Positions 381 through 1,007 of a stretch of DNA of 1,796 nt are shown piece by piece. A program made the translations under genes and the position numbers. The stretch is from NCBI RefSeq assembly GCF_003334815.1, contig NZ_QOWO01000093.1. One strand, written 5' to 3'. Source of the DNA: Escherichia coli. GTDB lineage: Bacteria > Pseudomonadota > Gammaproteobacteria > Enterobacterales > Enterobacteriaceae. Under the pieces are notes generated by a model. That model was given only the letters and a program-made list of their open reading frames with translations. It did no database searches and had not been told where the DNA came from. The first letter of the stretch is position 1; every line of letters starts with the position of its first letter.

Positions 381-1007
381 ATGATAATAGTATTAGGTAG
401 TCAAAAGGGTGGGGTAGGTAAAAGTACACTGGCGGTATCTATAGCTGCGTATCTGATGTCACTAGGCAATAGAGTGATTATTGTCGACGCAGATGACCAG
501 AAATCAGTATTAACCTGGTACAACAATCGCCCTGAAGATCTCCCTCATATTCCGGTTACAGGCGCGACAGGTAACATCAAAGCCATGTTAAAGGAACACG
601 AAAAATCCTATGATTTTGTTATTGCAGACTGTGCTGGCCGTGATAGCGCAGAAATGCGTAGTGGATTGATGGCCGCAGATGTATTCATTTCTCCTTTGCG
701 CCCATCTCAGATGGACCTGGATGTTGTGCCTCATACATGCTCCGTTTTTACAGCAGCAAAAGATTTTAATGAGGATGTTCGGGGATATCTCGTTTTAAAC
801 ATGACGCCCACAAATATGTTTGTTAATGAAGCCAATGAGGCAGCTGAAGTACTTAAGGATTACCCTGAAATGCATCTGGCAAACTCCCGGGTATGTGATC
901 GTAAAGCACATCGAGATGCTTGGGCCGAATCAATGACAATTTTTGAAACGCAAAATGATAAAGCCCAGCAAGAAATCGAAGCGTTAGTGAAAGAGGTTAT
1001 TCTGTGA
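381..1007 (+). CDS. parA: ParA/MinD/Soj-family partition ATPase, small type Ib-like form (208 aa, no N-terminal HTH extension)
   Basis: Deviant Walker A KGGVGKST at residues 9-16 (nt 405-428); A'-like motif IIVDADDQ; Walker B-like hydrophobic stretch ending in Asp (DFVIADCAG). The 208-aa length matches small ParAs such as ParF. An in-frame TAA at 366-368 makes ATG 381 the first start. GGGG at 372-375 is a possible SD 5 nt upstream. Confidence 0.93.
   Translation: MIIVLGSQKGGVGKSTLAVSIAAYLMSLGNRVIIVDADDQKSVLTWYNNRPEDLPHIPVTGATGNIKAMLKEHEKSYDFVIADCAGRDSAEMRSGLMAADVFISPLRPSQMDLDVVPHTCSVFTAAKDFNEDVRGYLVLNMTPTNMFVNEANEAAEVLKDYPEMHLANSRVCDRKAHRDAWAESMTIFETQNDKAQQEIEALVKEVIL

Follow-up and report, generated by a model that had tools for sequence, protein, structure and literature searches.

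The 1,796-nt stretch of Escherichia coli DNA analysed here (contig NZ_QOWO01000093.1 of assembly GCF_003334815.1; hereafter the window, meaning the whole stretch) carries, in order, the 3´ end of a polymerase gene, ten octamer repeats, two palindromes, parA, a second open reading frame (ORF), termed ORF2, six octamers and an element bounded by inverted repeats (Table 1). The window is a parABS plasmid partition locus of type Ib, belonging to IncI1 plasmids of the R64/pESBL type, in which ORF2 is parB and the GTG start codon of parB overlaps the TGA stop codon of parA. This overlap is real, ordinary and already known.

Table 1. Features of the window, with coordinates counted from its first nucleotide.
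Feature	Position	Strand	Description or basis
3´ end of Y-family polymerase gene (impB/umuC-like)	4-153	+	NCBIfam UmuC PRK03609, E = 4.5e-21
Upstream centromere/operator array	175-254	+	Ten head-to-tail octamers, 8-nt spacing; repeat search
Two palindromes, TTAACAACTTA/TAAGTTGTTAA	279-301, 341-371		parA promoter region; repeat search, 100% complementary
parA, 208 aa	381-1007	+	ORF; deviant Walker-A ATPase, small type Ib, ParF-like
parB Shine-Dalgarno (SD) sequence AAGAGG (core GAGG)	991-996	+	In parA Lys-Glu-Val (AAA GAG GTT), separated from the start by 7 nt
GTGA start/stop overlap, -4 spacing	1004-1007	+	parB GTG 1004-1006, parA TGA 1005-1007
parB (ORF2), 100 aa, GTG start	1004-1306	+	ORF; WP_001245884.1
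ParB N-terminal motif RNRxxTxPRDExAFINGGTAG, codons 2-21	1007-1066	+	Alignment; proportions of nonsynonymous and synonymous differences (pN/pS)
ParB ribbon-helix-helix (RHH) core, residues 41-84	1124-1255	+	Predicted
In-frame GTG, codon 42	1127-1129	+	Taken by some GenBank records as the start of a 59-aa 'Par-like protein'; not the real start
Downstream centromere array	1301-1357	+	One inverted octamer, then six direct TTGTTATC (1310-1357)
~292-bp element bounded by inverted repeats	1416-1707		Repeat search

A type Ib partition locus of IncI1 plasmids

Over its whole length, the window matches part of the E. coli plasmid RCS85_pI with 100% identity; this plasmid types as IncI1 (relaxase MOBP, mating-pair formation MPF_I), and at least 392 further plasmids in PLSDB carry at least 80% of it. 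The ORF2 product is identical to ParB of pESBL (Hp7, O3K_25817), and its accession is annotated both in the source plasmid of the window and in pESBL-EA11 of E. coli O104:H4; the proposal in the initial annotation that ORF2 encodes the partner of ParA is thus borne out. Because this accession is that of the published pESBL ParB, the partition system of the window has been described already: ParA, ParB and parS were named, and the system was classed as type Ib, by Poidevin et al. (2020, Genes 11:1207, PMC7602700). The pESBL/R64 locus and the window locus have in common the ParB accession, octamer parS arrays on both sides, a 208-aa ParA and adjoining impCAB genes, and we found no difference in the locus itself. 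In the published work, the 100-amino-acid Hp7/O3K_25817 protein bound arrays of the octamer GATAACAA in electrophoretic mobility shift assays (EMSA), a ParB-GFP fusion formed foci solely when the plasmid was present, and the pESBL par locus stabilised a mini-F replicon (PMC7602700).

Type Ib features are seen throughout the locus. ParA is about 200 aa long, has a deviant Walker A motif (GSQKGGVGKST, residues 6-16) and is without an N-terminal DNA-binding domain. It gave a full-length match in the PDB to the ParF structure 4dzz (E = 2.3e-14) and aligned across 1-203/203 of the NCBIfam model ParA_partition (NF041546; E = 1e-45). As the score of 155.8 bits lies below the curated cutoff of 180, we regard ParA as a member of this family and not as an exact ParA_partition equivalog. 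It is called 'ParA family plasmid-partitioning AAA ATPase' by the NCBI Prokaryotic Genome Annotation Pipeline (PGAP). The original pESBL annotation of parA began 93 bp too far downstream, losing the Walker A motif (PMC7602700).

ParB is a small centromere-binding protein with a predicted RHH fold. The initial annotation had spoken of an RHH region in ORF2, and the prediction supports an RHH-like fold in the C-terminal half, with the strand PVSISFF, a helix at residues 48-64, the turn G-x-x-R-V-N-R-S-D and a second helix at residues 71-83; an extra C-terminal helix (residues 87-99) reaches position 1303. No DNA-binding motif was predicted for ParB in the 2020 description, which also leaves the start/stop overlap unmentioned (PMC7602700). 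Searches of Pfam, NCBIfam and PDB sequences with ORF2 returned nothing significant, and the family is recognisable solely by its fold and its own relatives. A literature search on the best structural match, TTHA0139, gave nothing.

Short repeat arrays flank the operon, and the binding of ParB to such repeats is known from the published EMSA (PMC7602700). The upstream array comprises one TTGCTATC, four TTGTTATC and five TTATTATC, and the reverse complement of its octamers is GATAACAA, which was published as the parS unit that ParB binds in pESBL (PMC7602700). On the downstream side, the inverted octamer (GATAACAc, 1301-1308) overlaps the TAA stop codon of parB (1304-1306), and the centromere therefore takes in the last bases of parB. 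The inverted octamer faces the direct octamer at 1310-1317, with which it forms a short palindrome that opens the downstream parS array. Centromere repeats on both sides of the operon are likewise found in two other type Ib systems, par2 of pB171 and delta/omega of pSM19035, from which the window differs in its repeat unit and ParB sequence.

The GTGA overlap and the start of parB

At the junction (tctGTGAgaa, 1001-1010), both the GTG codon lying over the TGA codon and the AAGAGG sequence can be read directly, as the initial annotation had them. The span of 1001-1007 given there takes in three bases, tct, that are part of parA alone; the overlap proper is at 1004-1007. The bare string GTGA is unsurprising, given that a TGA stop codon preceded by A, G or T, about 3 cases in 4, mimics a start. 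What goes beyond chance is the 100-codon ORF that opens at the overlap, the SD, and the conservation of both. For this comparison we used 20 related loci (denoted by L-numbers) from plasmid records and from metagenome and genome contigs, with ParB identities to the window ranging from 91% to 28%. RTGA was found in 19 of the 20, including three with ParB identities of 30-43%, and synonymous sites across the set were saturated. Codon 2 of parB begins with A because this base is shared with the parA stop codon; Arg2 is encoded by AGA or AGG in every locus, and Arg4 by AGA, AGG, CGA, CGC or CGT. The GTGA overlap is thus real and conserved, but it is the commonest type of bacterial gene junction and in this sense ordinary.

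The duplex of the parB SD with the anti-SD (-6.5 kcal/mol) ranks in the top 3% of parA windows, and the SD falls within the strongest 1-7% of all 12-nt parA windows. The parA codons over the SD encode Lys/Asn/Arg/Gln/Glu-Glu-Val/Ile/Leu. In 15 of 16 loci this Glu is encoded by GAG, compared with 29% GAG at other Glu codons of parA (binomial P ~8e-8, a value that overstates the independence of these phylogenetically related loci). With the exception of L014 (AAGGAA), every locus retains GAGG or GGAG, and in the loci where Val (GTx) is replaced by Ile or Leu (ATx/TTA) the codon before Glu ends in G, restoring GGAG. Because of the GAG bias, the duplex rank and the GGAG restoration, we consider the SD to be kept at the nucleotide level, and these alignments indicate selection beyond a by-product of the ParA C-terminus. 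The SD that the initial annotation saw embedded in the end of parA is therefore a real element, and a selected one.

The start site of parB is well supported by the comparison. Upstream of GTG 1004, the ORF2 frame is closed by stop codons at 956-958 and 959-961, and no ATG, GTG or TTG lies between these and 1004. The codon at the position of GTG 1004 is GTG in most loci and ATG in L010, L014, L015 and L020. This switch arises in the final codon of parA, at its third base (CTG to CTA or TTA; CCA in L010), and is synonymous or near-synonymous in parA. Nine residues (R2, N3, R4, E12, F15, I16, G18, G19 and A21) do not vary among 29 sequences of 56-95% identity, and F15 is retained even in ParB relatives of 22-30% identity. 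Among 14 loci, codons 2-21 had a pN of 0.14 against a pS of 0.75, the lowest pN of any segment (0.20 in the RHH core, 0.56 in the linker). Since the conservation from residue 2 onward (MRNR..RDE.AFINGG), the low pN of codons 2-21 and the GTG/ATG switch at the exact position all agree, GTG 1004 is taken as the true parB start, as the initial annotation had claimed; it is also the RefSeq (PGAP) start in the source record and in five homologue records. The argument offered there, that the only in-frame ATG lies deep in the RHH region, holds as far as it goes (the sole ATG, 1187-1189, is codon 62, inside predicted RHH helix 1), but it overlooked a further in-frame start codon, the GTG at codon 42.

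Translation of parB across the overlap

The explanation that we regard as likely is that of an IncI1 type Ib operon in which parB is translated from GTG 1004, with its SD inside parA, by a combination of reinitiation and direct initiation. Ribosomes would reach the parB GTG by way of the SD in the last parA codons. Part of the ParB would most likely be made by ribosomes that end parA and re-initiate one base upstream (termination-reinitiation), and the remainder by ribosomes that bind the SD directly; such a mix is our best estimate. ParB output would then follow ParA output, with the ratio between them not locked. The 100-aa product would consist of an N-terminal tail, probably contacting and activating ParA, a variable linker and the RHH domain binding the octamers that flank the operon. 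Within this explanation, we infer the coupling and the activation of the ATPase by the tail.

The junction shares its architecture with the -4 (NTGA) gene pairs of E. coli studied by Huber et al. (2019, PMC6728339), in that the start codon lies over a TGA stop codon and the upstream gene contains the SD. Those pairs were assayed with premature stops and SD mutants. In this work, the only systematic test of its kind in E. coli, four of the five pairs were coupled, to varying degrees, and bioBF was uncoupled; in one coupled pair nearly 40% of initiation was de novo, and the SD made a contribution that varied from essential to nil (PMC6728339). The -4 overlap is the commonest spacing of co-oriented genes, and its abundance has been attributed in part to how easily it evolves (PMC12548453). 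Translational coupling of parA and parB is, on this basis, plausible. The initial annotation had said more, namely that the overlap indicates coupling and fixed stoichiometry. The first claim is too strong for the commonest co-oriented spacing, with one of five tested E. coli pairs uncoupled, and the second does not follow, as coupling would tie ParB to ParA synthesis in some ratio but not in a defined one.

Huber et al. hypothesized that de novo initiation at the downstream genes is prevented by local folding of the RNA, and folded their cloned regions in silico to test this idea (PMC6728339). When 120 nt around the junction in the window were folded, the result was no better than for shuffled sequences (minimum free energy z = -0.16). 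A consensus computed with RNAalifold from 17 loci contained three pairs (-0.6 kcal/mol), with no conserved structure, and the probability that the region from SD to start is unpaired varied between 0.21 and 0.54 across loci with no consistent bias. A model in which coupling works by unmasking of RNA is thus unsupported, given that no significant or conserved structure lies over the SD or the start. Rfam gave nothing in the whole window at E <= 1.

These folding results, together with several other observations, weigh against coupling and point to a different account of the same junction, in which the overlap exists but essentially all ParB comes from independent (de novo) initiation at its own SD and GTG, with the -4 spacing a compact and easily evolved arrangement that brings no functional coupling. 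Independent initiation may occur, as no significant RNA structure and no conserved hairpin masks the parB SD or start. In addition, the SD itself is good and under selection, and there are precedents both for de novo initiation at a -4 pair, bioBF (PMC6728339), and for the easy evolution of the spacing (PMC12548453). The most distant locus (L021, 28% ParB identity) has TAA, three bases and then ATG, so that a 3-nt gap replaces the overlap, and parB persists without parA in pESI-like Salmonella plasmids. Set against this are the four of five tested E. coli pairs that were coupled (PMC6728339) and the retention of the overlap in all loci but L021 despite saturated synonymous sites, with the TGA stop and an AGR codon for Arg2 kept in those loci. 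Even the pESI-like remnant holds a 28-codon ORF that still ends at the same TGA, so reinitiation may occur there too. We therefore think it unlikely that independent initiation accounts for essentially all ParB, and prefer the mix of reinitiation and direct initiation.

A second proposal concerns the tail. In the type Ib ParF/ParG system of TP228 (PDB 4dzz, 5u1g, 1p94), the disordered tail of ParG (residues 15-23, Arg19) enters the dimer of ParF and stimulates the hydrolysis of ATP (PMC5393062). By analogy, and with the constraint on residues 2-21 as indirect evidence, the ParB tail would probably make contact with ParA and activate it. ParB of the window has no detectable sequence similarity to ParG. 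Its tail motif lies at the extreme N-terminus (Arg2, Arg4, Phe15) and bears no resemblance to that of ParG, and this ParB has the extra C-terminal helix. It is conceivable, though doubtful, that the ParB N-terminus (Met-Arg-Asn-Arg ... Arg/Lys10-Asp-Glu-x-x-Phe-Ile-x-Gly-Gly) is an undescribed ParA-activating peptide with Arg2 and/or Arg4 as an arginine finger, and that the overlap, by locking Arg2 to a rare AGR codon after a weak GTG, throttles ParB and ties its initiation and early elongation to the termination of ParA. Were this so, the ratio of ParB to ParA would be low and proportional.

It is very improbable that the true product is instead the 59-aa 'Par-like protein' beginning at GTG 1127, with the GTGA at 1004 a chance overlap followed by an untranslated stretch. 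A 180-nt coding sequence from the equivalent GTG is annotated in CP052834 and CP067845, and several database entries exist for the 59-aa product. Yet most homologues have GTT, GTC or GTA at codon 42, none of them a start codon, and GTG 1127 has no SD-like sequence ahead of it. Purifying selection is seen in the 41 codons upstream, with the nine invariant residues in codons 2-21, and homologues at 22-95% identity are all about 100 aa long and align from residue 1. The cloned protein, for which activity was demonstrated, is likewise the 100-aa ParB (PMC7602700). The 59-aa calls from the internal GTG are found at 1624-1803 in L004 (CP067845.1) and at 1624-1803 in L002, and in RefSeq records of homologous or near-identical loci the 100-aa protein is a 'hypothetical protein'; neither name reflects the published function of ParB.

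Programmed -1 frameshifting or stop readthrough to give a ParA-ParB fusion is rejected as barely credible: parB is indeed in the -1 frame with respect to parA, and this frame is open between 962 and the junction, but 962-1004 holds no slippery X XXY YYZ heptamer in the parA frame, no stimulatory RNA structure is present at the junction, reading through the TGA in the parA frame does not lead into that of parB, and the canonical SD and start codon fully explain the junction.

Flanking sequences, relatives and annotation

Both palindromes lie between the octamer array and the start of parA, with the one at 341-371 abutting the parA SD. This palindrome is identical upstream of parA in L003, L004 and L016 and is present as variants in L005 and L017, and a TAACAA core is common to the palindromes and the parS octamer. 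The palindromes are probably an operator for autoregulation. A promoter scan gave no more sites than in shuffled sequence, with no parB-specific promoter in parA upstream of 1004, and no terminator was found.

The repeat units that flank the operon differ by member across L005, L006, L008, L011, L015, L017 and L020. The units seen in relatives are TTGTTATC, TTAATAAG/TTATTAAG, ATCTTAGT, TAGCTTAG and GATAACAA in the opposite orientation, and the two-sided layout of the arrays is retained in all of these relatives. The sequences suggest that ParB specificity and the centromere may co-evolve, hence giving rise to separate incompatibility types.

The ParB family is narrow, with 36 clusters (50% identity) at E <= 0.001 among 1.84 billion representatives. 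It is found on 1495 PLSDB records, mostly from Klebsiella, Escherichia and Salmonella, and the plasmids include non-IncI backbones with RepB or Rep3 replicons or of the IncFIB/IncFII type. A scan of viral contigs for relatives gave no confirmed locus. In L002 (CP052834.1, 1418-1803), a pESI-like megaplasmid of Salmonella Infantis, DNA related to insertion sequences replaces parA and ends 21 nt before the GTG. This locus keeps parB, the SD and the GTGA, has only two downstream octamers, and carries R4G and G22D at otherwise invariant positions of ParB; the 28-codon ORF that ends at the same TGA lies in the former parA frame. For five sampled Salmonella plasmids with ~91%-identical ParB (from 146 records in the 90-95% band), no ParA is listed. 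Judging from these sequences, parB of the L002 type looks like an orphan or a decaying gene.

Outside the par locus, the gene at 4-153 is annotated as a Y-family DNA polymerase in the identical plasmid record. The element at 1416-1707 ends in 47-nt imperfect inverted repeats that begin with GGGGTCCGC and contain ACGCTAAG, and we presume that these resemble the terminal repeats of the Tn3 family. The element has no convincing ORF and no annotation, and a clean 5-bp target duplication was not found at its ends (TAATA vs TATCA). At least 2162 plasmids in PLSDB, from Escherichia, Klebsiella, Shigella and Salmonella, carry it in whole or in part. By its sequence features it looks like a miniature inverted-repeat transposable element.

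Our understanding of partition systems and of translational coupling is unchanged by these results. What they add to the 2020 account of the IncI1 system is modest and testable: the predicted RHH domain; the conserved N-terminal motif with its invariant residues, which is the obvious candidate for activating ParA; and the conserved overlap, with an SD-plus-overlap junction at which the expression of parA and parB could be coupled. For annotation, their value is that parB is correctly started at GTG 1004, in a family that occurs on ~1,500 sequenced plasmids of enterobacteria, and that the 59-aa calls in GenBank drop the most conserved part of ParB.
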